Positions 25,760 through 63,988 are shown, numbered from the stretch's first letter. The stretch is 64,000 nucleotides of DNA from Patescibacteria group bacterium (GCA_020428645.1 JAGQMN010000001.1:532-64531); one strand, 5' to 3'. Made by a program: numbers and translations. The notes: generated from the sequence alone by a model not told the origin.

Positions 25760-27197
25760 ATTCTTTGTTCTCCTCCTTTTTATTTGTGTTCCTCATATAC
25801 TGCTTGCCCAAGTTGAGATTACTGAGGTAATGTATGATCACGAGGGTACCGATTCTGGTTTTGAATGGGTAGAAATCTATAATAGTGGAAGTAGTGATAT
25901 CGATATTGGATCGTGGTACTTTTTTGAAAATGACACGTACCACGGATTAACACCCGATGGATTTGTCTCGATCGGTGCGGGTGAACGTGCACTAATTGTT
26001 CAAAACCTTGAAAATATATATGCTGAATTTGGTTCATCACTTAACCTTGTGAAAAGTTCATTTTCGCTTAACAATACTGGCGAGACGATTGCGCTTGCTG
26101 ATCAGAATCGTACCACCCAAGATGAAATTACCTATTCAGCTGATGGCGGAGCGCTCGGTAATGGTAATAGCATACAACTTACAAACGGAATATGGATTGA
26201 AGCGTTACCTACACCAGGTAGTGTAAACGCAAGAGAAGGTGATCCTGGTGATACGAATAACGCGACAACATCCTCGTCTTCGACAAGTACAACAAAAAAA
26301 GAAGTAGTTGTTGATGACTACTACACTGGTTACCTTACCATAGAGAAGCAAGCAATCAGTGGTTCACCAACGAATATTGAAGCGTACGTTGTTCATACGC
26401 GTAATGGTCAAGATACAAAGCTCAAGAGGGGTGTCTTTTATCTTAATTTTGGTGATGGTTCTGTGTATACTTCGGACGAACGATTTGAAACACAACATGT
26501 GTACCAGTATCCTGGTGAATATCAGGTTGTTCTTGAATACTACCGGAGTATGCTTGCCCAAGAGGCAGGTGAAGATCCAAAGGTAATGATTAACAAACGC
26601 ATACAGGTACACGATCATGTTCTCTCGATTGTGGCTGTTGATGGTAGTGGTGGTGTTACCATTCACAATGGTGCATCCATACCTATTGATCTTGATGGAT
26701 GGAGTCTTGTATACGATAATCATACGTATACCTTTCCACGATACTTGATGCTTGCATCACAAGGAGAAGTGACCATTCCACGTACTATTCATAACCTGGG
26801 ATACGTACACGCTGGCAGTATTCGACTTTTGAATGAAATTGGTGAAATAATGCAGGTTGGTGTAGCAACACCACCCATTGCAATATATTCTGAACACGTA
26901 GAAGGGGATGATACCCTTGAAGAAGTACCTATCACCAGTGACGCAACTACAGCACTTGTGAATTTTTTGGCAGAACACCCCGATAAACAAGTTGTAGATT
27001 TTGGAGAGGCCTCACAGTCACAGAATCAAACTCAAGGCGATCAATCTACACATACGAGCCGCCTGTTTATTATGACACTTGTTGTGGGTGTTGTTGCACT
27101 CCTTCTTGTGCTCATTCGTGCACGTTACCGTACATCACAAATAGACGAACGAGGTGCTGAGCTTCAGGTAATTGGTGATATTGAATTAATAGAATAA
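25734..27197 (+). CDS. Lamin-tail-domain (LTD) protein with a C-terminal membrane anchor
   Basis: N-terminal signal/TM, then VEITEVMYDHEGTDSGFEWVEIYNSGSSDIDIGSWYF...LNNTGETIAL, which is an LTD signature. A second LTD-like segment follows (DGSGGVTIHNGASIPIDLDGWSLVYDN), and there is a C-terminal TM (LFIMTLVVGVVALLLVLI). Start set at the ATG at 25734, overlapping the upstream gene by 26 nt. Confidence 0.6.
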   Translation: MYFGVFSVKFFVLLLFICVPHILLAQVEITEVMYDHEGTDSGFEWVEIYNSGSSDIDIGSWYFFENDTYHGLTPDGFVSIGAGERALIVQNLENIYAEFGSSLNLVKSSFSLNNTGETIALADQNRTTQDEITYSADGGALGNGNSIQLTNGIWIEALPTPGSVNAREGDPGDTNNATTSSSSTSTTKKEVVVDDYYTGYLTIEKQAISGSPTNIEAYVVHTRNGQDTKLKRGVFYLNFGDGSVYTSDERFETQHVYQYPGEYQVVLEYYRSMLAQEAGEDPKVMINKRIQVHDHVLSIVAVDGSGGVTIHNGASIPIDLDGWSLVYDNHTYTFPRYLMLASQGEVTIPRTIHNLGYVHAGSIRLLNEIGEIMQVGVATPPIAIYSEHVEGDDTLEEVPITSDATTALVNFLAEHPDKQVVDFGEASQSQNQTQGDQSTHTSRLFIMTLVVGVVALLLVLIRARYRTSQIDERGAELQVIGDIELIE

Positions 27198-38018: not shown

Positions 38019-38864
38019 TTACAAGCGATACATCTTCCCAAGTTCTTCTTTGATAAGCCCCTTAATTTCCATTGATGACAGTAGGATATTTAATTTAATA
38101 ATGCTCATTTCAACCTTATCTGCAATTTGGTTCCGAGATAGCGGTTCAACTAATACATCTATGACTTTTTGCTCGTCAGGTCCGAGAGCCATCATTTGAG
38201 ATTGTTGTGGTTGTTGATCGGTGAATCCAAAGAAATCGAGAATATCCTCTGCACGGGTAACTGGCGTTGCCCCCTCGCGTATCAGTTCATTCGTGCCCTC
38301 AGAAGCTGGTGAAAATATTGATCCCGGCACCGCAAACACTTCTCGGTTGTAGTCAGTTGCGAGTCGTGCGGTAATGCGTGTTCCTGATGTGTTCTCGGCT
38401 TCGATGACGAGTGTTGCGTGTGCGATTCCTGCCATGACCCGATTACGTTGAGGGAAACTCCAATTGGTTGCCTTAAACGTTGGTTCAAATTCTGATAATA
38501 GGCACCCACCCGCGCGCAGAATGTTCTGTGCAAGTCCACGGTTTGATGCAGGGTAGAGGACAGAATCATCGAGTCCTGATCCTGGAACGGCTATGGTTGT
38601 GAGGTGGTTATCAAGAGCCGCTTGGTGAGCGATGCTGTCAATACCGAGTGCGAGTCCCGAAACAATAACAATCGGGTATCCGGCAAGTCCACGAATCAGG
38701 TGTTCACATACTTGTTTTCCGTAGGTGCTAAATTTCCGCGATCCAATAACGGTGAGAAATTTATACTCGTCTTCACTTGGTAGTATTCCACGAATGTAGA
38801 GTTGTTTTGGTGGATCAGATATTTCTTTGAGAAGGTGAGGGATGTCAGATGTTTCCATATGCAA
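38019..38864 (-). CDS. dprA: DNA-processing protein DprA (Smf)
   Basis: Rossmann-like DprA core VVSGLALGIDSIAHQAAL...TIAVPGSGLD...VIEAENTSGTRITARLA. It is conserved upstream of topA. Confidence 0.85.
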   Translation of the reverse strand: MHMETSDIPHLLKEISDPPKQLYIRGILPSEDEYKFLTVIGSRKFSTYGKQVCEHLIRGLAGYPIVIVSGLALGIDSIAHQAALDNHLTTIAVPGSGLDDSVLYPASNRGLAQNILRAGGCLLSEFEPTFKATNWSFPQRNRVMAGIAHATLVIEAENTSGTRITARLATDYNREVFAVPGSIFSPASEGTNELIREGATPVTRAEDILDFFGFTDQQPQQSQMMALGPDEQKVIDVLVEPLSRNQIADKVEMSIIKLNILLSSMEIKGLIKEELGKMYRL

Positions 38865-49454: not shown

Positions 49455-49480
49455 TAAATAGTACATATTCGTGTACTATT
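49455..49480. terminator. Bidirectional hairpin between convergent genes
   Basis: aaatagtaca-tattcg-tgtactattt, a perfect 10-bp stem. Confidence 0.45.
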
Positions 49481-49910
49481 TATTATTGTAATTTGCTAGT
49501 AAATCTGATGAACTTCTGACCTTACCGCCGTGCCCGACATTGAATTCCATTTTGATATTATGTTCGTTACAAAAGACGAATTCGGGAATGTCGTCAGCGA
49601 ACCGGTCACCACCATTGGCAAAGATATCAGGCATTACCTCAGCCAGTGCCTTGCATACGCTGGTATCAGGATCGTCTACTTTGTGGTTGGTAATGACGAC
49701 CTCGTCCACGCAAGCGAAGGCTTCGATGATTTCCTTGCGATCTTGTTCATTCATAAAGTTTTTTCCTTTTTTAGTGCGTAGCCAGTTATCGTTGTTAATA
49801 ATCACAACGAGTTTATTTCCGAGTGCCTTGGCTTCTTTGAGATACCTAACATGACCAATATGAATTGGATCGAATCCACCTGAAACAGCAACAACGATTT
49901 CTTTCTTCAT
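49476..49910 (-). CDS. Cytidylyltransferase-family nucleotidyltransferase (HIGH-motif Rossmann; RfaE-domain-II/TagD-like)
   Basis: VAVSGGFDPIHIGHVRYL is the (H/T)xGH nucleotidyltransferase motif. About 144 aa, a single domain. Confidence 0.65.
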   Translation of the reverse strand: MKKEIVVAVSGGFDPIHIGHVRYLKEAKALGNKLVVIINNDNWLRTKKGKNFMNEQDRKEIIEAFACVDEVVITNHKVDDPDTSVCKALAEVMPDIFANGGDRFADDIPEFVFCNEHNIKMEFNVGHGGKVRSSSDLLANYNNK

Positions 49911-49948
49911 GTGCGTAGTATAACAAGTCTTGCTATACTACGCACATG
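49908..49948. promoter_or_regulatory. Perfect 15-bp inverted repeat (CATGTGCGTAGTATA, 11 nt, TATACTACGCACATG) spanning both divergent start codons
   Basis: Read directly from the sequence. The whole 35-bp gap between the divergent cytidylyltransferase and PMM-like genes is the palindrome. Confidence 0.4.
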
Positions 49949-50710
49949 AAGAAGTACAACACGATCATTTTTGATTTGGATGGGACGTTGGCAGTGACTA
50001 AATCTCCTCTGACAGATGAAATGGGTCAATTAGTTGCTCAACTCACCCAAAAAATAAATGTGGTCATTATTACTGGTGGTCGTTTTGAACAGATTAAAAA
50101 ACAGGTTATTGATAGACTTGGTGAAAACGTTGTACGTTCAAATTTTTACGTACTCCCTACAACAGGATCAAGTATGGTTGCATATGATTCAAAAACAAAA
50201 GAATGGAATTACGTATATCGTCATGAATTAACTAACGAACAAAAAGAACGAATCATTAATGGAATTAAACAAGCTTTGGAACAAGCATCGTTTTCTATTA
50301 ATCCTGATGATGTTTTTGAAAATCAATTTGAAGATAGAGGTTCTCAAATTACATTTTCGGCTCTCGGTCAATATCAAAAACCGGAAATCAAGATTGTATG
50401 GGATCCTGAACAGAAAAAACGGCAGGAATTATTATCCTATATGAATCACTTAGAGGACGAGTTTGCGCTTAATTTAGGGGGTTCTACATCTATTGATGTA
50501 ACCTTAAAGGGAATTGATAAGGAATATGGAATTAATGAATTTTATAAAACAACAGCACTTCAAATTAAAGATGGTCTTTTTGTTGGTGATAAAATTTTTC
50601 CTGGTGGAAATGATTATCCAGCAATAAAAACAGGGATTGATTACCGTGAGACATCAGGTCCTGAAGAAACGATGGAAATTATCCACGAGGTACTTCAATC
50701 ATACGACTAA
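49946..50710 (+). CDS. HAD-IIB hydrolase, eukaryote-type phosphomannomutase (PMM)-like
   Basis: IIFDLDGTLA (DxDGT), VIITGGRFEQI and especially FVGDKIFPGGNDYPAI align with the PMM motifs LFDVDGTLT, GVVGGSD and FFGNETSPGGNDFEIF. Confidence 0.6.
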   Translation: MKKYNTIIFDLDGTLAVTKSPLTDEMGQLVAQLTQKINVVIITGGRFEQIKKQVIDRLGENVVRSNFYVLPTTGSSMVAYDSKTKEWNYVYRHELTNEQKERIINGIKQALEQASFSINPDDVFENQFEDRGSQITFSALGQYQKPEIKIVWDPEQKKRQELLSYMNHLEDEFALNLGGSTSIDVTLKGIDKEYGINEFYKTTALQIKDGLFVGDKIFPGGNDYPAIKTGIDYRETSGPEETMEIIHEVLQSYD

Positions 50711-50743: not shown

Positions 50744-51088
50744 ATGAAGGCATCGCACGTGACAAAAAAACCATGGGGAGAGTTCAGGCAGTTTACGCTC
50801 AATCAAGAGTCTACGGTAAAGACCCTATCTGTTAATCAGGGAGAAGAGCTTTCATTACAGACTCATACATCACGTGAAGAATATTGGTACGTACTCGATG
50901 GTCACCCACGAATAACACAAGGAAAAGATATCTTTGATGCAGAACCAGGTCGAGAATTTTTTATCGAGCAGGGTGAAAAACACCGTATCGCTGCACCAAT
51001 TGATGACGTTCGCATTCTAGAAATCGCCTATGGACACTTTGATGAAGATGACATCGTTCGGCTCGAAGATCGTTACGATAGATCTTAG
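50744..51088 (+). CDS. Cupin-domain protein, mannose-6-phosphate isomerase type II C-terminal-like
   Basis: KPWGEFRQF...SLQTHTSREEYWYVLDG...EKHRI fits the cupin_2 / PMI type II pattern. Confidence 0.55.
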   Translation: MKASHVTKKPWGEFRQFTLNQESTVKTLSVNQGEELSLQTHTSREEYWYVLDGHPRITQGKDIFDAEPGREFFIEQGEKHRIAAPIDDVRILEIAYGHFDEDDIVRLEDRYDRS

Positions 51089-51111: not shown

Positions 51112-53070
51112 ATGAAGCGTTTCCTTTCACAACTTATCGAGATATTGGTACAACCTCTTGTTCCTGCTTGGCAGAAAGAGGCGCCTTTGTCTCAGGAAGT
51201 TATTGGAACAGCACACTTCGATAATCAGCATTACTTTTTTGTTCGTGATGGCGACAAGGTTTTTCTCGTGAGTGATACAGATACCTATGTTTATCGACAG
51301 AATGTGTGTTTCTCTCGGATTATGACGAGGCACATTCCAAACATGTGTGACCTTGATGCGGTAACCTTACCAAACGGAGAGCATGCCATGGTGTGTACGG
51401 TCAAACTCAAGCGAGGGTACAAAACTGTGTATCTTACTTCACAAGACACTCGTCACTTTAAGGCGTGGTCAATGGTACGTAATCCAAACGGACATGCGAC
51501 AAAAATTATTGTTCATGCAGCTAATCAGATAGCACTTGTAACCTCAATTAATGGTGAGATTTGTTATCGCGATCTTGATGTACACAACCGAAATGTTGAA
51601 TACCACACAACACCGCTTGTACCACGACACGATTCGTTTGATCATAGTCCACTGCGTGTAGTTGGTGTATTTGATCTACCTGACGGGGTGTTTGTGCTCT
51701 ACGATACATCGTACGAAATGCGTGGGTTCGTGACTCACCGGTTTGGCGCGGCACTTCTTGCCCACGGAAACCTTGGTCACTGTCACTGGCGAGCGTACTT
51801 TGATGAGGTGCCATTCTGGGATTATTTTGTTTCTAAAAAAGAAAACGAACACCTCTCACTCTCTGCTATTAGTGCGTACCACCGTGGAGATACCATTCAT
51901 GTCTACTTTTATGACTGCCTGAACCGAGATGTGTATACGCTCGATCTTCACGAACCGTACTCACGTCGTGATCCACATCCCGACAAGGCAATCTTGCGAA
52001 AGTATGTACACAATCCAATTTTGAAACCAAATGAAGACCACGCCTGGGAATGTTACGCGACATTCAATCCAACCGCACTTCAGATTGGTAACACAACACA
52101 TCTCCTCTACCGGGCTGAAGGTTCAGCAGGTCTTTCGGTGATTGGCTATGGCTCCAGCTATAATGGGGTTACCTTTGATCGTTTACCTGATCCAATATAT
52201 GTTCCAACGATGGACTTCGAGGGAGTGAACTTGTCGCCTGACATGATACGATTATTGCGAAAACGTTCGACTAGTTTTAAATCCGGATATAACCACTATC
52301 CAACTGATTACCATGGATACCGTTGGCACGGTGTTGAGGATCCACGTATGACCGAGATGGAAGGTCGAATCTACATGATTTATTCCGCGTATAATGGCTA
52401 CCAGATGGCGCGACCTGCAATTACCTCAATTGATACAAACGATTTTCTGAATCACCGCTGGAACTGGGCGGTTCCACAGGTGATGACCGAACAGGCGTAT
52501 GCATGGGGGCAGGGGAATAAGAACGTCGTTCTTCACCCGGAAAAGGTAAATGGTAAGTATGTAATTTTCCACCGCATATGGCCACACATCCGGATCGATT
52601 ACGTTGATAATCTCGAATTTGGTCCTGGTAAAAAGTACCTCAAAGAGCTTGCACGCATCGAGGCTCGTGGGGATTCGTGGGATAGTAACCGCGTTGGTGT
52701 TTCTTCCGCTCCTATTTTGATTGATGAGGGGTGGCTGATGATTTACCAAGGATCGGGTTCGCAAGATCGTCGCTATAAAGTTGGTGCTATGATTCTCGAT
52801 CGATATGATCCATCAAAGGTACTGTACCGCAGTGGACAACCAATCCTTGCACCAACTGAATGGTACGAAAACGACAACAAATCCGGCGTTGCGTACCCTT
52901 GTGGAGCGGTTGTTCGAGATGGTACTCTGTACGTGTACTACGGAGCATCAGACAAGTACGTATCGGTAGCAACGGCACCTCTTCGTGAATTTATTGATAA
53001 GCTCAAACATGATGCGTACCAAAAACCAGAACTTACCAAAAGAATCGGTATCGACGACCTATGTATATAA
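51112..53070 (+). CDS. GH130-family glycoside hydrolase/phosphorylase domain protein with a ~290-aa N-terminal extension
   Basis: The C-terminal half carries NPILKPNEDHAWECYATFNPTA and GVEDPRMTEMEGRIYMIYSAYNG, the GH130 beta-mannoside-phosphorylase catalytic-Asp region. The N-terminal 290 aa are unassigned. Confidence 0.7.
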   Translation: MKRFLSQLIEILVQPLVPAWQKEAPLSQEVIGTAHFDNQHYFFVRDGDKVFLVSDTDTYVYRQNVCFSRIMTRHIPNMCDLDAVTLPNGEHAMVCTVKLKRGYKTVYLTSQDTRHFKAWSMVRNPNGHATKIIVHAANQIALVTSINGEICYRDLDVHNRNVEYHTTPLVPRHDSFDHSPLRVVGVFDLPDGVFVLYDTSYEMRGFVTHRFGAALLAHGNLGHCHWRAYFDEVPFWDYFVSKKENEHLSLSAISAYHRGDTIHVYFYDCLNRDVYTLDLHEPYSRRDPHPDKAILRKYVHNPILKPNEDHAWECYATFNPTALQIGNTTHLLYRAEGSAGLSVIGYGSSYNGVTFDRLPDPIYVPTMDFEGVNLSPDMIRLLRKRSTSFKSGYNHYPTDYHGYRWHGVEDPRMTEMEGRIYMIYSAYNGYQMARPAITSIDTNDFLNHRWNWAVPQVMTEQAYAWGQGNKNVVLHPEKVNGKYVIFHRIWPHIRIDYVDNLEFGPGKKYLKELARIEARGDSWDSNRVGVSSAPILIDEGWLMIYQGSGSQDRRYKVGAMILDRYDPSKVLYRSGQPILAPTEWYENDNKSGVAYPCGAVVRDGTLYVYYGASDKYVSVATAPLREFIDKLKHDAYQKPELTKRIGIDDLCI

Positions 53071-55007
53071 CCAGACGATCAGATCACAACCCGTTTATCA
53101 GACCGAACGAAGAAAAGCACTGGATGTCCTACGCAACCTTCAACTGGTCACCATGGCACGATGAAGAAACACATACTATTCATGCGTTATACCGTGCTAT
53201 GACGAAACCTGACCTCCTCGCATCAGGTCCGTCTTTTAGTGTGTCTTCAATTGGTTATACCTATAGTAACGATGAGGAACACTTCACTCACCACGAACAG
53301 TTTATTTTTTCAGAGGAAGAGTGGGAACGGTATGGGTGCGAAGATCCACGTGTGACGAAAATCGGTGATACCTACTACATTTTCTACACAGCACTCTCAA
53401 CCTATCCTTTTTCAGCTGAGGGTATTAAAGTTGCTGTTGCAACTACCAAGGATTTCAAAACGATTGACGAAAAAAAATTAGTAACTCCATTCAACGCAAA
53501 GGCGATGACACTCTTTCCAGAGAAAATAAATGGCAAATTTACTGCGCTCCTTACCGTTGATCCCGATAAACCACCGTCAAAGATTGCATTCATCCAGTTT
53601 GATTCTGAAGAACAAATCTGGGATCAGGGCTACTGGCATAATTGGTATGCGAACATCGACGACCATATCTTTGATCCACGAAAACGTGATGACGATCATT
53701 GTGAGATTGGTGCTGCACCGGTGTGGACTGATGAGGGATGGCTTCTTGTGTATTCACATATTCAGCACTATTTTAATGAATCTGAGCGAGTATTTGGTAT
53801 AGAAGCGCTGCTTCTCGACCACGATGACCCAAAAAAGATTCTTGGTAGGACAACTGGGCCCATCCTTGTCCCAGAGAAAACCTATGAAAAAGAAGGTCAG
53901 GTACACAACATTACGTTTCCATCAGGTGCGCTGCTTCATGGTGATCGTCTCGACATCTACTATGGTGGAGCAGATTCAGTATGTTGTATGGCAACTGTCA
54001 ATCTACACCATCTCTTGGACAGTATGAATATAGAGAAACGTAAAGAGCACATTGTTCGCTACGCCGGTAACCCAATTTTGGAGCCAATTCGTGAGAACGA
54101 ATGGGAAGCAAAACTGGTCTTCAATCCAACCACCGTCGATATCGGTGAAAAAACCTATATTGTGTACCGTGCTATGTCACAGGACAACACCTCGTACATG
54201 GGAGCTGCGGTGACTACCGATGGCTACACCATTGATGAACGTTTTTCTGAACCAATCTACGTTCCACGTATGGATTTCGAGATGAAGAAATCACATCCAA
54301 CAGGGAACTCTGGATGTGAGGACGGTCGTGCAACGGTCATCGGCGACACCCTCTACATGTTTTACACCGCGTACAATGGGGTGGATGCTCCCAGGGTTGC
54401 TTTTTCATCAATTTCATTGAACCATTTCGAGGCAAAGAACTGGAATGCATGGTCAGAACCACAGCTGGTAACGCCAGATGGAATAGATGACAAAGATGCC
54501 TGCCTCCTCGCTGAAAAAATTAGAGACGAGTACGCGATCTTTCACCGCATCAAACACCATGTGTGTTTTGACACGGTACCTGAACTCGATTTTTCAAAAC
54601 ATCGATTGAATAAGTGTATTCCATTAATTGGCCCACGAACTGGGATGTGGGACGGACTGAAGGTTGGTATTGCTGGTCCCCCTATTAAGACTGATGCAGG
54701 ATGGTTACTGTTGTACCACGCAGTATCAACTGATAAATACTATCGCGTTGGCGCGATGTTGATGGAGCTCGATAATCCAGGTAACATCATCGGACGTACG
54801 ACTGATTTCATTCTCGAACCCGAAGAACGGTGGGAACTTGAGGGTGAGATCAACAAAGTTGTCTTCCCGTGTGGTGCCTCGATTCGTGGTGATGAACTCT
54901 TTATCTACTACGGTGGAGCCGATACCGTGGTTGGGGTAGCAACGACAAAGCTCTCATGGCTACTTGACGTATTGACCTGGCAACGTGATTCAGACAATTG
55001 GTCGTAA
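53061..55007 (+). CDS. Tandem double GH130-domain protein
   Basis: Domain 1 has NPFIRPNEEKHWMSYATFN...GCEDPRVTKIGDTYYIFYTA. Domain 2 starts at about nt 54,033 with NPILEPIRENEWEAKLVFNPT...GCEDGRATVIGDTLYMFYTAYNG. The gene overlaps the upstream GH130 gene by 10 nt. Confidence 0.7.
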   Translation: MYITRRSDHNPFIRPNEEKHWMSYATFNWSPWHDEETHTIHALYRAMTKPDLLASGPSFSVSSIGYTYSNDEEHFTHHEQFIFSEEEWERYGCEDPRVTKIGDTYYIFYTALSTYPFSAEGIKVAVATTKDFKTIDEKKLVTPFNAKAMTLFPEKINGKFTALLTVDPDKPPSKIAFIQFDSEEQIWDQGYWHNWYANIDDHIFDPRKRDDDHCEIGAAPVWTDEGWLLVYSHIQHYFNESERVFGIEALLLDHDDPKKILGRTTGPILVPEKTYEKEGQVHNITFPSGALLHGDRLDIYYGGADSVCCMATVNLHHLLDSMNIEKRKEHIVRYAGNPILEPIRENEWEAKLVFNPTTVDIGEKTYIVYRAMSQDNTSYMGAAVTTDGYTIDERFSEPIYVPRMDFEMKKSHPTGNSGCEDGRATVIGDTLYMFYTAYNGVDAPRVAFSSISLNHFEAKNWNAWSEPQLVTPDGIDDKDACLLAEKIRDEYAIFHRIKHHVCFDTVPELDFSKHRLNKCIPLIGPRTGMWDGLKVGIAGPPIKTDAGWLLLYHAVSTDKYYRVGAMLMELDNPGNIIGRTTDFILEPEERWELEGEINKVVFPCGASIRGDELFIYYGGADTVVGVATTKLSWLLDVLTWQRDSDNWS

Positions 55008-55051: not shown

Positions 55052-55417
55052 ATGAAGATATTTGTAACACACTCTAGCGATATTAATGTACATGAAGATT
55101 TGTATCAACCAATCAGAGAATCAGAATTGAATAAAAAACACGACATTAAGTTACCACAAGAGTTTGGTAAAGAAACAATTACCAAAGAACTCATTCAATC
55201 TCAAGATTTTATTATTGCCGAATCCTCAATGCCTTCGACCGGTTCAGGTATTGAATTAGGTTGGGCTGATATGTACAACGTACCGATACTCAATGTATAT
55301 AAAAAGAATAGTAAATCTTCATCTTCACTACGGTACGTAACTGATAATCATATTGAATACATAGATAGCAAAGACATGGTTAATAAAATTACAGATTTTA
55401 TTGATAACCAAGTATGA
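55052..55417 (+). CDS. Nucleoside 2-deoxyribosyltransferase-like small Rossmann protein
   Basis: STGSGIELGWA resembles the GTxxExGxA motif of the nucleoside deoxyribosyltransferase-like family. Support is weak. Confidence 0.35.
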   Translation: MKIFVTHSSDINVHEDLYQPIRESELNKKHDIKLPQEFGKETITKELIQSQDFIIAESSMPSTGSGIELGWADMYNVPILNVYKKNSKSSSSLRYVTDNHIEYIDSKDMVNKITDFIDNQV

Positions 55418-56158: not shown

Positions 56159-59100
56159 ATGAACTACATCAAAAAATTTCGTGAACTGACAAAAAAAGAC
56201 GCTGATATCGCAGGAGGAAAGGGTGCCTCCCTTGGAGAAATGCTCAATGCTGGAATTCCCGTTCCTGATGGATTTGTGGTGACTGCCGATACTTTTGATT
56301 TCTTTCTTGCTGAAACTGATCTCGTTCAGGAAATTGGTGCTATTTTGAAAAAAGTGGATACCCAGGCAATTCACACTGTTGATGATGCATCTGAACAAAT
56401 TCAAAATCTGATTCGCAGTGCACAGATGCCTGAATCTGTGGCTTCTGAAATCCTCAAAGATTTTGATGAACTTGATACGGCTTACGTTGCAGTTCGTTCT
56501 TCGGCAACTGCCGAAGACGGTGCTGATCATGCATGGGCAGGGCAACTTGATTCGTACCTCAACACAACGAAAGATATGCTCCTCGAAAAAGTTCAGTCGT
56601 GTTGGGCATCACTGTTTACTCCACGGGCGATCTTTTACCGGTTTGAAAAAGGTCTTCACACCACTCACATCTCTGTTGCGGTGGTAATCCAGAAAATGGT
56701 GAACTCTGAAAAATCAGGGATTGCTTTTTCAGTGCATCCAGTGACTGAAGATTACAATCAGATGATTATCGAGGCAGGTCTTGGACTCGGCGAGGCTATT
56801 GTTTCTGGTTCGGTTACCCCCGATTCCTACGTAGTTACCAAAGACCCACAGGAAATTATCGATAGCAACGTTAATACTCAAACCAAGGCACTGTACCGTA
56901 CTGCCACAAAGGGTGACCACGGTTTCAACGAATGGAGAGAACTATCTGAAACCGAAGCTAATCAGCAGGTACTTGATAACACACAGATCATCGAGTTAGC
57001 AAACATTATTGAACGTATCGAAAATCACTACGGATTCCCATGTGATATTGAATGGGCGTATGAAAACAATACCTTCTTTATTGTCCAATCTCGACCAATT
57101 ACAACGCTATCGAATAAAACGGTAGACCTAAAAAAAAACGATAGTGTAGCAAAACTTACCTTTGAACGAGAGTATACACGGGATTTTTCAATAATTCTCG
57201 AAGATTTTTGGCATCACGGATTAATGAGTTGTTATCGTGATATTCTTCAATCTGAACCTCTACATGAAACCCCCCTCGTTACATATATACATGATGGTGT
57301 TGTTGAAACATGGCAAAATCGTCCATTCATCAATGATCTAAAGAAAAAAATTCTTGAACGTAATATTGCTGATCCATCTTTTCTTAATCCTATTATGGCG
57401 GACTATCGTGTTTTACTTGATACCTTTAAACAGTATCGGGCACAGAAAAAATTTGCACAATCACACAAAGATATTAAAGAACTCTTGGCGCAGTTTAAAG
57501 AGGGAATTCGTCTATGGATTCCGTGGGGGCATGCAGCCTATGTAGAAGAAACACCAAAAGATATTTGGGATAAAACTATGGCGCTTCGTGATATTGATAC
57601 ATTTTGGGATGATGCTGATTACGTATTACGGAAGAGTATTATTAATGTTTACCCGGAGCTTGAAGGGTGTGAGAATACTATCCTTGCGGAAGAGCTGTTA
57701 ACCGGTTCTGACAGCTTTGACAATAACCAGTACACAAAACGTCTCTCTGGGTATGTTCATATTCCTGGTCGGTCACACTGGTTTGGTGACTTAGCAAGCG
57801 CTGAAGAAAAGTACAGAGATCTACAATTTAACTACCCGACGAATGAGATTGTAAACAATGGTTTCAAAGGCGAAATCGCATATGCTGGTAATCAAGAAGT
57901 CATTACTGGTAAGGTTCGTATTATCAAGAGAAAAGACCAAGTACGTACATTACAAGATGGTGAGGTATTAGTCTCGCCAATGACAACACCCGACTTTGAA
58001 CCAGCAATGAAGCGTGCGGTAATCACTATTACCGATGAAGGTGGGATCACTTGTCATGCGGCAGTTGTTGCCAGAGAGATGAAGTTACCATGTATTACTG
58101 GAACCCGAATTGCTACTAGTTTTTTGAATGATGATGACACCGTTTCAGTAAATACAAAAACAGGAGTTGTGACTCGTATTGCATCTAAATTTCCTAATGG
58201 CGAATGTTTTAAAAACATGTCGACTCCAGATGCATGGAACTACACAGGGAAGTGGATTCAAAATCCACTATGTTCAAGTTTTTGGGCTGCGTATCACCAA
58301 ACTGATATTGTTCAGAAAATTTATCCTGATCGAGAATTTGGTATTGAGTTCAGCGTTGATGGTCACTGGCGAGAGAACCTTGTTGATATCACATATATGA
58401 AATCAGAAATCATCAGAAGATATCAAGATGGTAGTCTAGATAAATTTGTTCAAAATTTCGATTCGGTAGGTAATGAGATTCAAAATGTACTCTTAAAAGA
58501 GATTAATGAAATTAGTATTAATACATTACCACTTCAAGAGATCTTTGCTTGCTATCAAGATTTGTTCACTTATTGGGGTTTTCTAACATTCTTAGGTGAC
58601 TTAACCATGCCAGTTGCAAACGAGGTAAATCTTGTTTCCTCTGATGGTGAATTTTTCGAGATGACTCATCCTCATCTTCGTCTAACCTGGATTGAATATG
58701 AAGAAGAAAAAACACGTGAAATCGCTCAAGAAGTAATTAATTTAGGTGCAGGTGTTTGTAATATCGAACTCATAAAGAAAAATAAAACTATTTCAAAGCT
58801 TGTCAAAGAATATTTTGAAAATTTTGCGTGGGTTGGTGTTAACAAATGGGAAGGAGAGGGAATGAACGATGAGAAATTAGTTGAACGAGTAAATCAGGCA
58901 ATTGAAAACATTAAAGAAGGAAACTTTTTTGAATCTCGTTCTCCTAATGAATCTATTTTTAAAGAACTTAATCCACTCGTGCAACTTGGTGTATCTACTG
59001 CGTATTGGCGTGCGACCTGTGCTAGTTTAGCAGCTCGCTTTGAGTATCTGATACAAGAGCGAATGAGTAAGTTGGCAAAGAAACATAAGATTACTTACAA

Positions 59101-62100
59101 TGATATTATTTATCTTAGTAAGCACGAGGTTCTTATCCTTGAAAATGAGGGAACCTTACTTGTTCCAGTAAAAGATATACAAGAACGTAAAGAAGGTTTT
59201 GCGTGTTTTGTTGATGTTGAAGGTACACTCAATGTCGTGTCAGGTAATAATAGGGTGTATCAAAAACTCAAAAAGCTCTATGGTAGTGCACCAAAGTTAG
59301 AGTTTAATAAAAGTTTTATTGAGGGAATGCCAGCATGCAAAGGTTTTGCTGAAGGGCGAGTTACAATTGTTTCCAGTAAAGATGATTTCCATAAGTTTCA
59401 AAAAGGGAATATTCTAGTCTCCGAAGAAACAACACCTGCTTTCGTACCTTTAATGAGACAAGCGTCAGCAATTGTAACTGATCGTGGAGGTATCACCTCG
59501 CATGCTGCTATTGTTTCTAGGGAACTTGGTAAACCTTGCATTATTGCTACTAAAAACGCTACTCAAATTTTAAAAGATGGAGATTTGGTTGAGGTGGATG
59601 CTGATAACGGAATTGTGCGTATCATCGAAACATCCCAAAAAAAAACTCAAAATGAGGTAGAACAAGATATTGTTGATAAGGTTGCTAAACAAAAATATCA
59701 TTATATTCACAAACGTTATCGCACTCCATTCTATATGGAACTCATGTGGAAAGGCGCAAGTGTTTCTTGTAAAGATTCAAAAATCCCTTTTGATTATTTA
59801 GTTGAGGGTCTTTATCTTGATACAGAGATTGGGTTTGAAGATAGGGATTGGAATAATGCTAAAAAGATTACTTGGGAATTTACACATCAAAATCCTAAAT
59901 TGTTTTTAAAGATGATTGAAGATGCGTACTCAATCCAAACATCTATTCGTAAATCAATAAAAAAAATTACTCAAGATATTGACAAGGTTAATAAACAAGA
60001 TGTCGTTAGGTTTTGGCAAGAATATGCAAGACGTATGCACGCATTTGGACAGTATCTTCTTCCTCCGTTATTTATCGAATCGATTCTAGAGGAACGTATA
60101 CAAAAAGCAATTACACAAGTATTATCAAAACATGATTTCAATGAAGTGTTTCGGATTTTAACAACCCCTATGAAATTAGGAACTGCTGTTTTAGAAGAAC
60201 TGTCAATTCTTGATATTGCAATTGCAGAAAAGAATAAAAAACCCGTAGATGGTTTAATAGAAAAACATTTAGAAGATTTTGGTTGGACGAAAAATAATTC
60301 TCATGATGGGAAATTTAATACCATCAATGATATTGAAGACAGTGTTCAAAAAGTTTTGAGTGAAAGCGATCCATCAATTTTAAAACAACACATTGAAGAA
60401 GATATTGCTCACACCAAAGAGAAATTTGATTCATATTTCTCCATGTTTGACAAAGAGACGCAAAGTCTCATTGAAATATTACAAGAATCTATTTATTATC
60501 GTAGCTGGCGTACTGAACGTTACTATAAAAATGCATATTATTTAGATTCACTATTCCGTAAAACCGCAGAGATTTTAAACATGCAAATGTATTCTGATAT
60601 TTTCTTTTTAACGATTGATGAAATAATTTCACTACTCAAGGGCAAGAGTTTTGATTTCAAAGATCTTATACAAAATCGCAAATTAGGTTATGCAGTTTAT
60701 GCTACTGAAACAGGCACACACGTTTTTCAAGGCGAGGATGTATTGAAAATGAAAGAATCTGTAAAATTTTTTGATGAATCCCAACAGACAGATGTCATTA
60801 TCGGACAACAAGCATATCCAGGTGTCGTATCGGGCAGAGCCCGTGTTATTTTGGACAAGAAAAACTTGGATAGAGTTCAAGAAGGAGATATTCTTATTAC
60901 TCCAGCCACAACAGTTGATTATGTTCCTACATTAAAAAAAGTGAAAGCCATTGTAACCGATGAGGGTGGTGTACTTTGCCATGCGTCTGTTATTTCGCGG
61001 GAATTACGCATACCGTGTATCATTGGTACGAAAAATGGTTCCAAGATTATTCAAGATAATAGTGTAGTTGAAGTTGATGCCAATACAGGAACAGTACATA
61101 TTCTTGACAAAGAGCAAAAAGAAAATACGCACATAAATTTTGACCTCAACCAAGAACCGTTGGTGTGGGGTCCTGTTGGCATGAACTCTATACTATCGTT
61201 TACTACTTGGGTACCTGGCTTATACAATGGTTTTTCAAAACAATTTCCAGGATATTCGTGGCCGAAACTACTCGCACTGTTTAAGGAATATTTCTTTGCA
61301 TGGATTCACGAGTTGCAAGATATTGAAAAACATGGAGCTGATGTTTTTGTGGATCTCATGATGAATCCAAAGGTACGAGAACAAGCACGCAGTGAATGGG
61401 AACAATCAAAGGACCGTTTACGTGATGTTGAAGAGATACTTGAACAGCACAATCTTACTCAGCTTAGTGGTGACGAGTACTTGAACCTATGGCGCCAAAT
61501 GGAAACAGCCATTACAGATTTTTGGGTGTGGTCGAGTTTGCCTGAACTTGCTAACTATGGATCAATCAATGTTTTGAAAGAGCGCTTAAAAAACAACGTA
61601 CCTAAAGACAATATAATGTCGGTATTAGAAATACTCACCGCACCCGAAGATATTTCGTTTTTTCAACAAGAGGAAATTGACCTTGCACGGACTCATGATC
61701 TTGAGGCACATCAGCAGAACTACTTTTGGTTAAACAACAGCTACGCACACATTGAGGTTACACCTGTTTCATTTTTTGAAAAACGAAAAGCAGTGTTATC
61801 ACCAAGCATTGAAACTGAAATAGCCGAACGCATGGCGTCAGTCAAAGAAGCTAAACAGAATGTCCAAAAACAATATAATCTCTCGGACGAAATTATGGAG
61901 ATGGCGTACCGTATTACTGATGGAATTATTTGGCAGGATAAACGAAAGAAAGAGGTATGGGTATATCTCCACTACGAGGAGCAAATGTTCCATGAAGCGG
62001 CACGACGAACCAATACAGATGTACAAGACGTAAAGTTACTTCTTTTTGAAGAATTTGAGCCTTTTATTAAGGGTGAGATTAATATCGATGATATTAAAAA

Positions 62101-63988
62101 CCGGACTGATGGTTTCCTGGTATACATTGATGAACACCAAAACATGAAAACTTATGGTTCTAATATTGCGAACTACTACTGGAATCACTACTTTCCTTCG
62201 GAAAAAGATCTCAGTATTACCTCTTTGAAAGGTACTGTTGCGAGTAAAGCCGAATCCGGCAATGTACAAGGTAGTGTAAGAATTATTCTCGATGCGACAA
62301 AGTGCAAAGATTTTTGTCCTGGTGATGTTTTAGTGACTACGATGACAACACCCGAATTTGTATTTCTTATGAAACAAGCGTCAGCGATTGTGACTGACAC
62401 TGGAGGATTGACCTCACACGCTGCGATTGTTGCGCGTGAGCTTGGTAAACCATGTATTATCAATACGAAATCAGCGACCCGTGCGCTAGAAGATGGTGAC
62501 TTGATTGAAGTTAATACTGATGTAGGTGAGGTTACTATTATAGAACGATCGAATACCTCACATTCGCTCCCCATTAATCCACATGACTACAAATTTATTG
62601 GGCTTTGGAAGGAAGATTTGTTTCCAGCATACTTTTGGGCTCGGTGGTTTGATGTAAAGAAAAATAATAAACTTGGATTTACAGAAATCACTAATAGTGG
62701 AGCACTTATTTTGAAAGGTGGGAACTTTTTTTGGAGTCATCAAATGCGAGATCAAATGAAAGCACTCCTTGATCGAGTTGTTGAAACAAAAGATACCTCA
62801 CTGTTTAAGAATTTATACAAACAAGCTAATAAATGTTTTAGGGACACAATGAAAAAGGCCGACACATTGGCAAAAGAAGAACCAGATACTGAAAATTTTG
62901 AAACATTCATTCAATTAGGTCGTGACCTCATGTATTATTGGACCTTTGGCGCTTCAATGGCAGAGTTTGTTGATGAGTATATTATCGAGCATGCATCCAG
63001 AGAACATATTAAACCTTCTGATGTAGTTGGGTATGTAGACATACCAGAGACTGAACTTATGCGTCAGCAGTCGGCACTTCGTGAATTTCATCAGGAATTT
63101 AAAAAACGAGGTTGGCTTGATAGAATCGATGGTGATCGAGAATCACTTATTCATGATATTCAACAAGATAAGAAACTCTACAAAAAATTAGAGAAACATA
63201 TGTATGAGTATGGCTGGATTGAAATGTTGAACTATGTTGGTGACGTTATAACCTTTGATAGATTCCTTACCATTATTGGAGGTGTTGGAGAAGAGCAGAA
63301 ACCCCAAGAAAAGAAAAAAGTTTCAGATACATTTAATTTTATTCTTAATATCGCTTCCTACATTGGTTACGCACGTCAAGCTGGAGCGGAGTATTCTTCA
63401 GTGTTTTCCTATAAACTACATGACTACTTAAAAGCTACAGCAGAAAAAATAAATGTATCTTACTCAGAAATGTTAAACCTGACACCGGAAGAAATTATAC
63501 TTGCACTCTCAAATAACTTAGATCCACAGCCACTACTACAACGACGAGCAAATAGAAATTGGTTAGTGTGGTGGGACAAACATCAACATGCACAGGTTGT
63601 AGATGATTCAGATATTATCAATAAATTGTACGAGAAAATGGTTCCTATTATAGAGGATGATCAACGTCAACTTGTTGGTCAAACTGGTAATAAGGGTAAG
63701 GTTGTTGGAAAAGTGAGTGTAATTATGGCCACCGAGGATTTTGGAGCATTCAAAGAGGGTAACATTTTAGTCACTACTATGACGACACCAGATTTCGTAG
63801 TCTTAATGCAAAAAGCATCGGCAATCGTGACTGATATCGGAGGTTTACTGTCCCATGCATCAATTGTCTCACGCGAACTTGGTAAACCTTGTGTTATTGG
63901 TACAAAATTTGCTACTCAAATACTCAAAGATGGTGATATGGTTGAAGTTGATGCGGATAACGGAGTTGTTAAGATTCTAGAAAAATAA
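56159..63988 (+). CDS. Giant PEP-synthase/rifampin-phosphotransferase-like protein (2609 aa): one N-terminal PPDK_N-type ATP-binding domain plus five tandem phosphohistidine swivel modules
   Basis: N-terminus DIAGGKGASLGEMLNAGIPVPDGFVVT...AVRSSATAEDG is the PPDK_N/PEP-synthase nucleotide-binding domain (about aa 1-315). There are five copies of the mobile-domain motif GG(I/L/V)(T/L)(S/C)HA(A/S)(I/V)V(S/A)RE(L/M)...P, with His codons at 58055, 59501, 60980, 62417 and 63854, each preceded by a ~390-aa spacer domain. There are no internal stops and no PEP/pyruvate TIM-barrel motifs. Confidence 0.75.
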   Translation: MNYIKKFRELTKKDADIAGGKGASLGEMLNAGIPVPDGFVVTADTFDFFLAETDLVQEIGAILKKVDTQAIHTVDDASEQIQNLIRSAQMPESVASEILKDFDELDTAYVAVRSSATAEDGADHAWAGQLDSYLNTTKDMLLEKVQSCWASLFTPRAIFYRFEKGLHTTHISVAVVIQKMVNSEKSGIAFSVHPVTEDYNQMIIEAGLGLGEAIVSGSVTPDSYVVTKDPQEIIDSNVNTQTKALYRTATKGDHGFNEWRELSETEANQQVLDNTQIIELANIIERIENHYGFPCDIEWAYENNTFFIVQSRPITTLSNKTVDLKKNDSVAKLTFEREYTRDFSIILEDFWHHGLMSCYRDILQSEPLHETPLVTYIHDGVVETWQNRPFINDLKKKILERNIADPSFLNPIMADYRVLLDTFKQYRAQKKFAQSHKDIKELLAQFKEGIRLWIPWGHAAYVEETPKDIWDKTMALRDIDTFWDDADYVLRKSIINVYPELEGCENTILAEELLTGSDSFDNNQYTKRLSGYVHIPGRSHWFGDLASAEEKYRDLQFNYPTNEIVNNGFKGEIAYAGNQEVITGKVRIIKRKDQVRTLQDGEVLVSPMTTPDFEPAMKRAVITITDEGGITCHAAVVAREMKLPCITGTRIATSFLNDDDTVSVNTKTGVVTRIASKFPNGECFKNMSTPDAWNYTGKWIQNPLCSSFWAAYHQTDIVQKIYPDREFGIEFSVDGHWRENLVDITYMKSEIIRRYQDGSLDKFVQNFDSVGNEIQNVLLKEINEISINTLPLQEIFACYQDLFTYWGFLTFLGDLTMPVANEVNLVSSDGEFFEMTHPHLRLTWIEYEEEKTREIAQEVINLGAGVCNIELIKKNKTISKLVKEYFENFAWVGVNKWEGEGMNDEKLVERVNQAIENIKEGNFFESRSPNESIFKELNPLVQLGVSTAYWRATCASLAARFEYLIQERMSKLAKKHKITYNDIIYLSKHEVLILENEGTLLVPVKDIQERKEGFACFVDVEGTLNVVSGNNRVYQKLKKLYGSAPKLEFNKSFIEGMPACKGFAEGRVTIVSSKDDFHKFQKGNILVSEETTPAFVPLMRQASAIVTDRGGITSHAAIVSRELGKPCIIATKNATQILKDGDLVEVDADNGIVRIIETSQKKTQNEVEQDIVDKVAKQKYHYIHKRYRTPFYMELMWKGASVSCKDSKIPFDYLVEGLYLDTEIGFEDRDWNNAKKITWEFTHQNPKLFLKMIEDAYSIQTSIRKSIKKITQDIDKVNKQDVVRFWQEYARRMHAFGQYLLPPLFIESILEERIQKAITQVLSKHDFNEVFRILTTPMKLGTAVLEELSILDIAIAEKNKKPVDGLIEKHLEDFGWTKNNSHDGKFNTINDIEDSVQKVLSESDPSILKQHIEEDIAHTKEKFDSYFSMFDKETQSLIEILQESIYYRSWRTERYYKNAYYLDSLFRKTAEILNMQMYSDIFFLTIDEIISLLKGKSFDFKDLIQNRKLGYAVYATETGTHVFQGEDVLKMKESVKFFDESQQTDVIIGQQAYPGVVSGRARVILDKKNLDRVQEGDILITPATTVDYVPTLKKVKAIVTDEGGVLCHASVISRELRIPCIIGTKNGSKIIQDNSVVEVDANTGTVHILDKEQKENTHINFDLNQEPLVWGPVGMNSILSFTTWVPGLYNGFSKQFPGYSWPKLLALFKEYFFAWIHELQDIEKHGADVFVDLMMNPKVREQARSEWEQSKDRLRDVEEILEQHNLTQLSGDEYLNLWRQMETAITDFWVWSSLPELANYGSINVLKERLKNNVPKDNIMSVLEILTAPEDISFFQQEEIDLARTHDLEAHQQNYFWLNNSYAHIEVTPVSFFEKRKAVLSPSIETEIAERMASVKEAKQNVQKQYNLSDEIMEMAYRITDGIIWQDKRKKEVWVYLHYEEQMFHEAARRTNTDVQDVKLLLFEEFEPFIKGEINIDDIKNRTDGFLVYIDEHQNMKTYGSNIANYYWNHYFPSEKDLSITSLKGTVASKAESGNVQGSVRIILDATKCKDFCPGDVLVTTMTTPEFVFLMKQASAIVTDTGGLTSHAAIVARELGKPCIINTKSATRALEDGDLIEVNTDVGEVTIIERSNTSHSLPINPHDYKFIGLWKEDLFPAYFWARWFDVKKNNKLGFTEITNSGALILKGGNFFWSHQMRDQMKALLDRVVETKDTSLFKNLYKQANKCFRDTMKKADTLAKEEPDTENFETFIQLGRDLMYYWTFGASMAEFVDEYIIEHASREHIKPSDVVGYVDIPETELMRQQSALREFHQEFKKRGWLDRIDGDRESLIHDIQQDKKLYKKLEKHMYEYGWIEMLNYVGDVITFDRFLTIIGGVGEEQKPQEKKKVSDTFNFILNIASYIGYARQAGAEYSSVFSYKLHDYLKATAEKINVSYSEMLNLTPEEIILALSNNLDPQPLLQRRANRNWLVWWDKHQHAQVVDDSDIINKLYEKMVPIIEDDQRQLVGQTGNKGKVVGKVSVIMATEDFGAFKEGNILVTTMTTPDFVVLMQKASAIVTDIGGLLSHASIVSRELGKPCVIGTKFATQILKDGDMVEVDADNGVVKILEK

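Follow-up and report, generated by a model that had tools for sequence, protein, structure and literature searches.

Two overlapping genes, here called A and B, lie in the window, the stretch of 64,000 nucleotides analysed as a whole (Patescibacteria group bacterium, GCA_020428645.1 JAGQMN010000001.1:532-64531), and together with a cupin isomerase and a mutase of the HAD type upstream of them they probably constitute a module for the handling of beta-1,2-linked mannosides in the cytoplasm, a reading to which we assign a probability of about 0.6 on the strength of domain, residue and gene-order comparisons. Gene A encodes a degenerate propeller (A_N) followed by a domain of glycoside hydrolase family GH130 (A_C), and gene B encodes two GH130 domains in tandem (B_N and B_C). 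The arrangement is not a local oddity, as the gene pair is conserved across Patescibacteria and Omnitrophota.

A_C, B_N and B_C are members of GH130 by sequence, by fold and by their catalytic Asp. Against Pfam PF04041 (Glyco_hydro_130, gathering score 26 bits), protein A gives a single match (amino acids (aa) ~295-632, E 1.5e-40, 139.5 bits), and protein B is matched in two stretches (E 9e-88, 294.7 bits). An earlier reading of the window, made from its sequence alone (the sequence-only reading), had counted three GH130 domains in two open reading frames (ORFs) overlapping by 10 nucleotides (nt), two of them fused on one polypeptide, and both the count and the tandem fusion are real. The motifs that it quoted are all present, namely HNPILKP (aa 300), TFNPT (aa 317) and VEDPR (aa 408) in A, HNPFIRP (aa 9), TFNW (aa 26) and CEDPR (aa 93) in the first domain of B, and GNPILEP (aa 336), VFNPT (aa 353) and CEDGR (aa 419, nt 54315-54329) in the second. 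The closest solved relatives of the three domains are the beta-1,2-mannoside phosphorylases 7FIP (Teth514_1789), 9FJ8 (Teth514_1788), 5B0P (Lin0857) and 9ERG (Uhgb_MS), at about 25-35% sequence identity to characterised enzymes; the GH130 fold, a five-bladed beta-propeller, is found, and neither an assignment to GH43 or GH32 nor a loss of the catalytic residues from all copies was seen. As had also been stated, GH130 proteins usually have a single domain: more than 99% of the family is mono-modular, with four GH130-GH130 proteins among 1592 CAZy sequences in 2018 (Li et al. 2020, PMC7660257).

The active sites can be read with rules established on characterised enzymes. GH130 phosphorylases have one Asp as proton donor (D104 in Uhgb_MP) that acts via the mannose O3, with phosphate as the nucleophile, and the phosphate is bound by an Arg/His pair (R168/H231 in Uhgb_MP) and a third basic residue (K212) (PMC7660257; PMC4599007). 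In GH130_3 hydrolases, the three basic residues are absent and glutamates are found in their place (PMC4599007). The signature of beta-1,2 linkages at the +1/-1 subsites comprises an Arg, the Glu beside the catalytic Asp, a Lys and an Asp (PMC7660257 Table 2; PMC4599007), of which the Lys gives the beta-1,2 specificity (PMC4599007); equivalents in Teth514_1788 are Asn28, Glu91, Asp92 and Asp281 (PMC4264767). The residues in question in Uhgb_MS are R47, E136, K184, R202 and R242, with the phosphate(s) held by K184, R202 and R242, and R202 has been stated to determine phosphorylase versus hydrolase activity (PMC12814180). Residues were mapped by alignments to Uhgb_MS, Uhgb_MP and Teth514_1788 and by a profile-profile alignment, with the numbering set by counting along the alignments (the Uhgb_MS chain is native, with E136/D137, K184, R202, R242 and H261; the 4UDG chain is native +20, and R150, R168, K212 and H231 were confirmed), and conservation in B was scored in 115 database homologues and 81 genome-derived sequences.

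By these alignments, the proton-donor Asp (Uhgb_MP D104, Teth514_1788 D92) corresponds to D410 in A_C, D95 in B_N and D421 in B_C and is invariant in the homologues, and A_N has a Leu at this position. The beta-1,2 signature is present as R334/E409/K470/D614 in A_C, R45/E94/K147/D305 in B_N and R370/E420/K478/D621 in B_C, all of them invariant or nearly so. There is no sign of the mixed linkage specificities (mannosyl-glucose, or the beta-1,4 linkage of the N-glycan core) that had been suggested for the copies. The sequence-only reading had named the catalytic Asp and the phosphate-binding Arg and His as the residues by which the copies should be compared; the Asp stands in all three, but the phosphate set is complete in B_C, missing from B_N and altered in A_C.

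B_C probably is, and works as, a beta-1,2-mannoside phosphorylase near subfamily GH130_6, to judge from its residues. These are N355, R370, E420, D421, K478, H495-R496, K534, H553 and D621; the phosphate trio R496, K534 and H553 is complete, and the key residues are invariant in the 115 and the 81 sequences except for K534 (Lys in 74, Arg in 7). B_C matches 7FIP with E 3e-50 and 9FJ8 with E 6e-48, and its Foldseek template-modelling (TM) scores to 7FIR, 9GPH and 9FJ8 are 0.87-0.91. The EDGR motif of this domain had been regarded as divergent, but among the 115 homologues, the catalytic Asp is followed by Pro in 82 sequences, by Gly in 18 and by Ala in 14, and the motif is therefore ordinary family variation in a canonical copy that has all catalytic, phosphate and beta-1,2 residues.

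A non-standard copy does exist in B, but it is the EDPR domain B_N and not the EDGR domain. B_N keeps its sugar-contacting and proton-donating residues, N28, R45, E94, D95, K147 and D305, all invariant in both sequence sets, and has lost the phosphate-binding Arg, Lys and His, all three, in the alignments, in the profile alignment and in the 115 and 81 sequences. The respective positions are T165 (T/S), H213 (mostly H, some Q) and S232, followed by H233 (H/Y), and this pattern is family-wide. Because the phosphate-binding residues are gone, B_N cannot use phosphate in the usual way, and by the residue rule of the field it would not be a phosphorylase; as the GH130 mechanism inverts the configuration, hydrolysis by a beta-1,2-mannosidase with a carboxylate base would be the simplest activity left, with a silent sugar-binding partner as the main alternative. 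A Glu specific to B_N, Glu215, occurs in 80 of the 81 and in all 115 sequences. In the model, the strand H213-C214-E215-I216 of B_N is the counterpart of K534-V535-G536-I537 of B_C, and since strand residues i and i+2 face the same way, Glu215 likely replaces the invariant Gly beside the phosphate-binding Lys, so that its carboxylate probably sits in the former phosphate pocket. B_N further has an enlarged, Trp-rich aromatic segment (aa 180-213, YWxxWY) in the place that loop L2 occupies in Uhgb_MS, and its W192 and W195 are invariant or almost so. It is as conserved as B_C (mean pairwise identity 55% vs 56%, near-invariant columns 66 vs 66) and hence is not decaying.

Two further ideas about B_N were given up. 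The invariant Asp169 had been considered as a new acid replacing the phosphate-binding Arg, which was withdrawn, as the same Asp is found in Teth514_1788 (HRRYPD) and in Uhgb_MP (SRPSD). A transglycosylase role was dismissed on mechanism, as inversion of a beta-mannoside donor cannot give a beta-linkage again.

It is also conceivable, if somewhat unlikely, that B_N is silent like A_N and serves as an obligatory dimer partner of B_C or as a mannan-binding domain that feeds chains to it, with the fusion hard-wiring the dimer. GH130 enzymes form dimers to hexamers in which loops of the neighbour shape the active site (PMC12814180), one propeller of the same system, A_N, has already degenerated, the aromatic loop with W192 and W195 lies where L2 is placed between the active sites in Uhgb_MS, and the Glu in the phosphate pocket could merely block it. 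What speaks against a silent B_N is the set N28, R45, E94, D95, K147 and D305, which a pure scaffold would not need, which A_N has lost and which is nevertheless invariant, although binding alone could explain such a conservation. The AlphaFold model of full-length B is confident (predicted local distance difference test score (pLDDT) 92.8, predicted TM score (pTM) 0.90) and indicates a fixed two-propeller geometry, which counts for the main reading of the module and for a silent B_N. In the main reading, because free GH130 enzymes oligomerise and the model has this confident geometry, each polypeptide probably works as a covalent pseudo-heterodimer, with the active propeller supported or fed by the altered one. 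All Foldseek matches of full-length B cover one propeller (query TM 0.41), and the two-propeller arrangement was found in no solved structure.

In A_C, the corresponding residues are N319, R334, E409, D410 (the donor), K470, H487-R488, R527, Q546 and D614, and Q546 thus replaces the phosphate-binding His while R488 and R527 are present. The domain carries a 26-aa insertion ahead of the ED motif and matches PDB 7FIP with E 4.7e-42. A_C probably acts as a second phosphorylase that differs in its preference for chain length or acceptor, in the manner of the adjacent pair Teth514_1788/1789. Across loci, the phosphate site of A_C-type domains (in the window aa 487-546 of A, nt 52570-52749) co-varies in two configurations. 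The first, seen in 66 of 77 loci, has H-[S/N/A/G], an Arg displaced by one position and the unchanged His; the second, to which the window and Omnitrophota belong, accounts for 10 of the 77 and has H-R, a Lys or Arg at the canonical place and then H, Q or N. In sequence comparison, this pattern looks like a relocated phosphate ligand.

The N-terminal 290 aa of A, which had been left as an unassigned extension, are by profile comparison and structure prediction a fourth, degenerate GH130-like propeller and a catalytic relic. Searched alone against Pfam, A_N has no match, but its family profile is collinear with the profiles of B_C and A_C over 229 columns (probability 98.3-98.4%, E about 1e-14). 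With a profile from close relatives only (at least 49% identity), the GH130 homology is weak (probability 52-80%); the strong signal requires the wider family, and the fold search gives independent support. The AlphaFold model of A_N alone reaches pLDDT 85.8 and pTM 0.82. Catalytic and phosphate residues are lost (ED to DL at aa 80-82, HR to TS, YH to YD, GGAD to YDC). A homologue search returned 286 matches among 1.84 billion representatives, nearly all of them in proteins of 600-650 aa that begin with A_N and are matched a second time, less strongly, in their own GH130 domain. Protein B starts directly with its propeller, and A starts with a short helix; by inspection of the sequence, there is no typical signal peptide. 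Where A-type proteins bear A_N, their first residues (in A aa 1-13, 51112..51150) form a conserved helix that is basic and looks amphipathic, with MKRFLSQLIEILVQ and MKKILSQLIRLIKQFVKFLF as examples; in the model of A_N it spans aa 2-13 and is followed by a low-confidence linker. The helix might be a membrane- or partner-targeting element.

With regard to distribution, the B-type tandem was found in 5579 clusters at E <= 1e-10 among the candidates scored and in at least 588 species genomes (scan with one genome per species), and 116 of the 120 best B matches are 489-651 aa long. The relatives nearest to A and B come from metagenome-assembled Patescibacteria (for B, 86% and 78% identity among the matches listed), and A has about 26 full-length homologue clusters at 49-68% identity. 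Gene order was analysed in the best 80 of the at least 588 species, with ORFs classified by purpose-built domain hidden Markov models; these 80 loci belong mostly to Patescibacteria lineages, several to Omnitrophota, and one is labelled Planctomycetia. An A_C-type gene lies immediately upstream of B on the same strand in 78 of them, and the remaining two are cut by a contig end. A_N is present in 32 of these A-type genes and absent from the other 46 (370-450 aa). The genes are coupled, as had been proposed from their overlap: the distance from A to B ranges from -44 to +78 nt in 74 of these 78 loci, and the identical 10-nt overlap recurs in the two closest genomes, L001 and L002. An assembly or frameshift artefact that splits one fusion gene is excluded, as these two related genomes keep the overlap and the 78 loci as a rule have separate genes. 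Natural fusions occur as well: four proteins of 971-1110 aa combine A_C, B_N and B_C in gene order, and one of 784 aa (P0178) joins B_N and B_C to the cupin mannose-6-phosphate isomerase. Among proteins with further fusion forms, P0150 and P0152 (about 700 aa) combine A_C and B_C without B_N.

Table 1. Genes and domains of the GH130 module and its neighbours in the window.
Feature	Position	Strand	Size and description	Basis or remark
Gene A	51112..53070	+	652 aa; A_N degenerate GH130-like propeller, then GH130 domain A_C	ORF, Pfam
Gene B	53061..55007	+	648 aa; tandem GH130-GH130	ORF, two Pfam stretches
A/B overlap	53061..53070	+	10 nt, ATGTATATAA	stop of A with start of B
A_N	51112..51981	+	A aa 1-290; helix aa 2-13, then five-bladed propeller without catalytic residues	
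A_C	51994..53031	+	A aa ~295-640; GH130	Pfam, PDB 7FIP, hhalign vs B_C
B_N	53061..54035	+	B aa 1-325; GH130 without phosphate-binding Arg, Lys, His	
B_C	54048..54980	+	B aa 330-640; canonical beta-1,2-mannoside phosphorylase-type GH130	PDB, Foldseek, residues
Cupin, mannose-6-phosphate isomerase type	50744..51088	+	114 aa	Pfam PF01050 5.7e-19; directly upstream in 55/80 loci
HAD-IIB alpha-phosphohexomutase (phosphomannomutase/alpha-phosphoglucomutase type)	49946..50710	+	254 aa	Pfam PF03332 PMM full length
Cytidylyltransferase-like nucleotidyltransferase, RfaE domain II-like	49476..49910	-	144 aa	Pfam PF01467, NCBIfam TIGR02199, below cutoff

The cupin has no solved relative by sequence. The HAD mutase, which covers the full length of Pfam's PMM model of the eukaryotic type, accompanies the pair in 44 of the 80 loci, where it lies upstream of A or else downstream of B. 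Among solved proteins, its best match is an alpha-phosphoglucomutase of the HAD type from Lactococcus (4BND, 6e-37), and human PMM2 (1e-15) comes next. A cytidylyltransferase-like gene is found in 17 of the 80 loci, usually upstream on the same strand; the protein in the window has its best match, one below the cutoff, in the heptose-1-phosphate adenylyltransferase domain of RfaE/HldE, and it could activate a manno-configured sugar-1-phosphate. Within +/-8 kb of the module, no recurrent transporter, binding protein or other glycosidase was found in the 80 loci, nor is a guanosine diphosphate mannose (GDP-mannose) pyrophosphorylase conserved near it in these loci.

With these neighbours, the module probably runs a cytoplasmic pathway in which a beta-1,2-mannoside and inorganic phosphate would be converted to alpha-mannose-1-phosphate by B_C, and probably by A_C too, the alpha-mannose-1-phosphate to mannose-6-phosphate by the HAD mutase, and the latter to fructose-6-phosphate by the cupin, with every step reversible. 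In B_C, Asp421 would protonate the glycosidic oxygen through the O3 of the sugar, and the phosphate held by Arg496, Lys534 and His553 would attack C1 and thereby release alpha-mannose-1-phosphate.

Several observations weigh against this reading of the module. Protein B scores 382 bits (both domains summed) and A 196 bits in NCBIfam NF052550, the equivalog of beta-1,2-mannobiose phosphorylases, the cutoff of which is 450 bits. Most other lineages have an A_C without the Arg equivalent to R488 of the window copy, so the chemistry of A_C may differ between genomes. The resemblance of B_N to GH130_3 hydrolases is weak and covers only a part of the domain (E 0.001 to 0.9), and in NCBIfam NF058598 (GH130_3 beta-1,2-mannosidase, cutoff 550), B scores 160 and A 75 bits; with the pocket of B_N as the only query, phosphorylases rank first, hydrolases match weakly and partially, and the hydrolases in the PDB stand below all phosphorylases. 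The place given to Glu215 derives from strand periodicity only. The best solved relative of the HAD protein, 4BND, is named an alpha-phosphoglucomutase, and for these bacteria we know of no natural source of beta-1,2-mannosides. In the related family GT108, active-site residues alone do not decide between phosphorylase and transferase (PMC10913872), the characterised GH130_6 enzymes also are weak GDP-mannose transferases (PMC12814180), and the searched literature contains no assay of any member of the tandem family.

As every step is reversible, the same enzymes could run in the opposite direction or in a cycle, and it has to be considered, although we think it unlikely, that these bacteria make an intracellular beta-1,2-mannan reserve of their own from fructose-6-phosphate via mannose-6-phosphate and mannose-1-phosphate, comparable to the mannogen of Leishmania. 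A_C or B_N would then be a primer or synthase and B_C a reversible phosphorylase. GH130_6 enzymes do build beta-1,2-oligomannan from mannose-1-phosphate, with a weak transfer from GDP-mannose (PMC4264767; PMC12814180), the conserved neighbourhoods tie the GH130 genes to isomerase and mutase, with transporters, binding proteins and extracellular glycosidases never among them, neither A nor B has an evident signal peptide, a nucleotidyltransferase able to activate a sugar-1-phosphate is linked in the 17 loci mentioned, and the organisms in which the module is widespread have very few glycoside hydrolases besides (PMC7143001). The lack of a linked transporter and the direct wiring to fructose-6-phosphate thus leave room for an endogenous reserve. 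On the other side, no beta-1,2-mannan has been reported in these bacteria, uptake may be encoded elsewhere than within the 8 kb on either side, the cluster has no dedicated primer or GDP-mannose pyrophosphorylase, and the equilibrium of phosphorylases in vivo usually is toward breakdown. Should the reserve exist, which is doubtful, it would be the counterpart of mannogen in Patescibacteria and Omnitrophota, and B_N or A_C would add GH130 chemistry not yet described, such as priming, chain-length control or hydrolytic trimming in a covalent heterodimer; for metabolically minimal, host-dependent bacteria, this would mean a carbon and energy store that spares adenosine triphosphate.

For the module as a system that handles beta-1,2-mannosides, the choice of substrate also matters. 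The identity of only 30-35% to characterised beta-1,2 enzymes, the unmet equivalog cutoffs and the beta-1,3 phosphorylases among the GH130 enzymes with a Glu at +1 (PMC7660257) would allow for a fragment of a host cell-surface glycan, a mannosyl compatible solute or a beta-1,3 linkage instead, but this is quite unlikely, as the Lys that separates beta-1,2 from beta-1,3 (Arg) and beta-1,4 enzymes is invariant in A_C, B_N and B_C and the nearest solved structures are all beta-1,2-specific. A lead toward mannosylglucosylglycerate, prompted by GH130-GT81 fusions, was dropped, as the Rhodopirellula paper gave no link to the family of the module.

Least probable of all is that B_N and/or A_C are nucleotide-sugar-dependent beta-mannosyltransferases like their GT108 relatives: the Arg found at the phosphate position of phosphorylases is absent from strict GT108 transferases and from most A_C-type domains, and GH130_4, GH130_6 and GH130_13 include dual phosphorylases/transferases governed by loop L2 (PMC12814180), a region that is remodelled in B_N, but loss of R202 in Uhgb_MS abolished the transferase activity too (PMC12814180), residue patterns are poor predictors here (PMC10913872), no conserved GDP-mannose pyrophosphorylase accompanies the module, and such a role is made less likely for B_N in particular because it has none of the basic residues able to hold a diphosphate.

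The surroundings of the module are those of an ordinary chromosome, with genes for AlaRS, S4, RpoA, DnaK/J, CysRS, DnaB, topoisomerase I, SerRS and RNase J. Between B and an M24 peptidase, a 121-aa ORF (55052..55417, + strand) has no Pfam or NCBIfam match and no counterpart at 80 other loci. Further downstream, a 2609-aa ORF (56159..63988, + strand) encodes one ATP-grasp domain of the pyruvate-phosphate-dikinase type (aa 16-324) followed by five "swivel" phosphohistidine domains of phosphoenolpyruvate (PEP) utilisers, with GG(I/L/V)x(S/C)HA at aa 628, 1110, 1603, 2082 and 2561 in repeat modules of ~480 aa that are 26-47% identical. By Pfam, this protein has no PEP/pyruvate-binding barrel; its architecture is unusual, and in other genomes it is unlinked to the GH130 module. 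At 23795..27197 (+ strand), a type IV coupling protein that resembles TrwB/TraG (654 aa) precedes a protein of 544 aa with a lamin-tail domain, a pair that may be part of a type IV secretion or competence apparatus of Patescibacteria, and a DprA gene is found at 38019..38864 (- strand).

In the literature, nothing was found on tandem GH130 proteins beyond the count by Li et al. (PMC7660257), neither a description nor an assay, and GH130 in bacteria of the Candidate Phyla Radiation (CPR) has one passing mention among the papers found. As far as this searched literature goes, the conserved set of three domains (four with A_N), the conserved, phosphate-blind B_N and the relic A_N are new, as are the tight link to isomerase and mutase and the breadth across Patescibacteria and Omnitrophota. 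For GH130 enzymology, a family that breaks the mono-modular rule offers canonical, variant, phosphate-blind and dead propellers as a natural test series for the residue rules, and the same series bears on the question why GH130 enzymes need a partner subunit. With respect to CPR biology, the module is among the few carbohydrate systems that are conserved over hundreds of genomes of Patescibacteria and Omnitrophota, and it is wired to mannose-6-phosphate and fructose-6-phosphate. The identity of the substrate would reveal what these uncultivated episymbionts take from their hosts, or that they keep a sugar reserve. There is also an applied side, as beta-1,2-mannoside phosphorylases are of interest for the synthesis of beta-mannosides without nucleotide sugars.

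Among known systems, the GH130-GH130 entries of CAZy share the two-module architecture with B and have been counted only (PMC7660257). The mannosyltransferase/phosphorylases (MTPs) of Leishmania (GT108; 6Q50, 6Q4Y) are distant fold relatives (Foldseek E 1e-10 to 1e-8) and likewise form an array of paralogous propellers, some of which are phosphorylases and some not, that makes and degrades an intracellular beta-1,2-mannan; in contrast to the module, they belong to another CAZy family, share 14-17% identity and are encoded by separate genes of a eukaryotic parasite, and a mannan reserve in the bacteria is a model by analogy. Lin0857 and Uhgb_MS (5B0P, 9ERG), which as GH130_4 members are a phosphorylase of beta-1,2-mannobiose and a mannoside synthase, agree with the module in fold, catalytic Asp and the R/E/K determinants, and differ in being single-domain homodimers with a 48-residue lid loop specific to GH130_4, at 24-27% identity.

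The beta-1,2-mannosidases of GH130_3 (BT3780, BACOVA_03624; PDB 5A7V, 3QC2) resemble B_N in that they retain the sugar residues and the Asp, have none of the three basic ligands and carry a conserved carboxylate close by (PMC4599007). The bases of BT3780, E227 and E268, are a pair of glutamates, whereas in B_N a single invariant Glu is specific to the family, E215, which on the same strand comes two residues behind the position of the Lys, and an equivalence would be by analogy only. GH130_3 enzymes carry signal peptides, and B apparently does not. In sequence, B_N is not close to GH130_3 (E 2e-13 with the whole domain and 0.67 with the pocket region as query), and therefore any hydrolase function of B_N would have arisen independently from a phosphorylase-like ancestor.

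The closest characterised proteins to the domains of the module, by sequence and structure match, are the two GH130_6 enzymes Teth514_1788 and Teth514_1789 of Thermoanaerobacter sp., which are the best matches of A_C, B_N and B_C (E to 3e-50; TM 0.87-0.91; 33-35% identity). The likeness extends to the beta-1,2 signature and the catalytic Asp and, in the case of B_C, to the residues that bind phosphate, and the two enzymes also are adjacent paralogues in a gene cluster for mannose-phosphate and nucleotide metabolism. Unlike A and B, they are separate single-domain proteins of ~300 aa, both canonical, and their cluster has an ABC transporter and a GH5, whereas the module consists of two-propeller (elsewhere three-propeller) fusions in which one phosphate site is lost and one propeller is a relic, with no linked transporter. 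The two Thermoanaerobacter enzymes differ in chain-length specificity, and the authors placed the pair in a salvage route that produces mannose-1-phosphate (PMC4264767).

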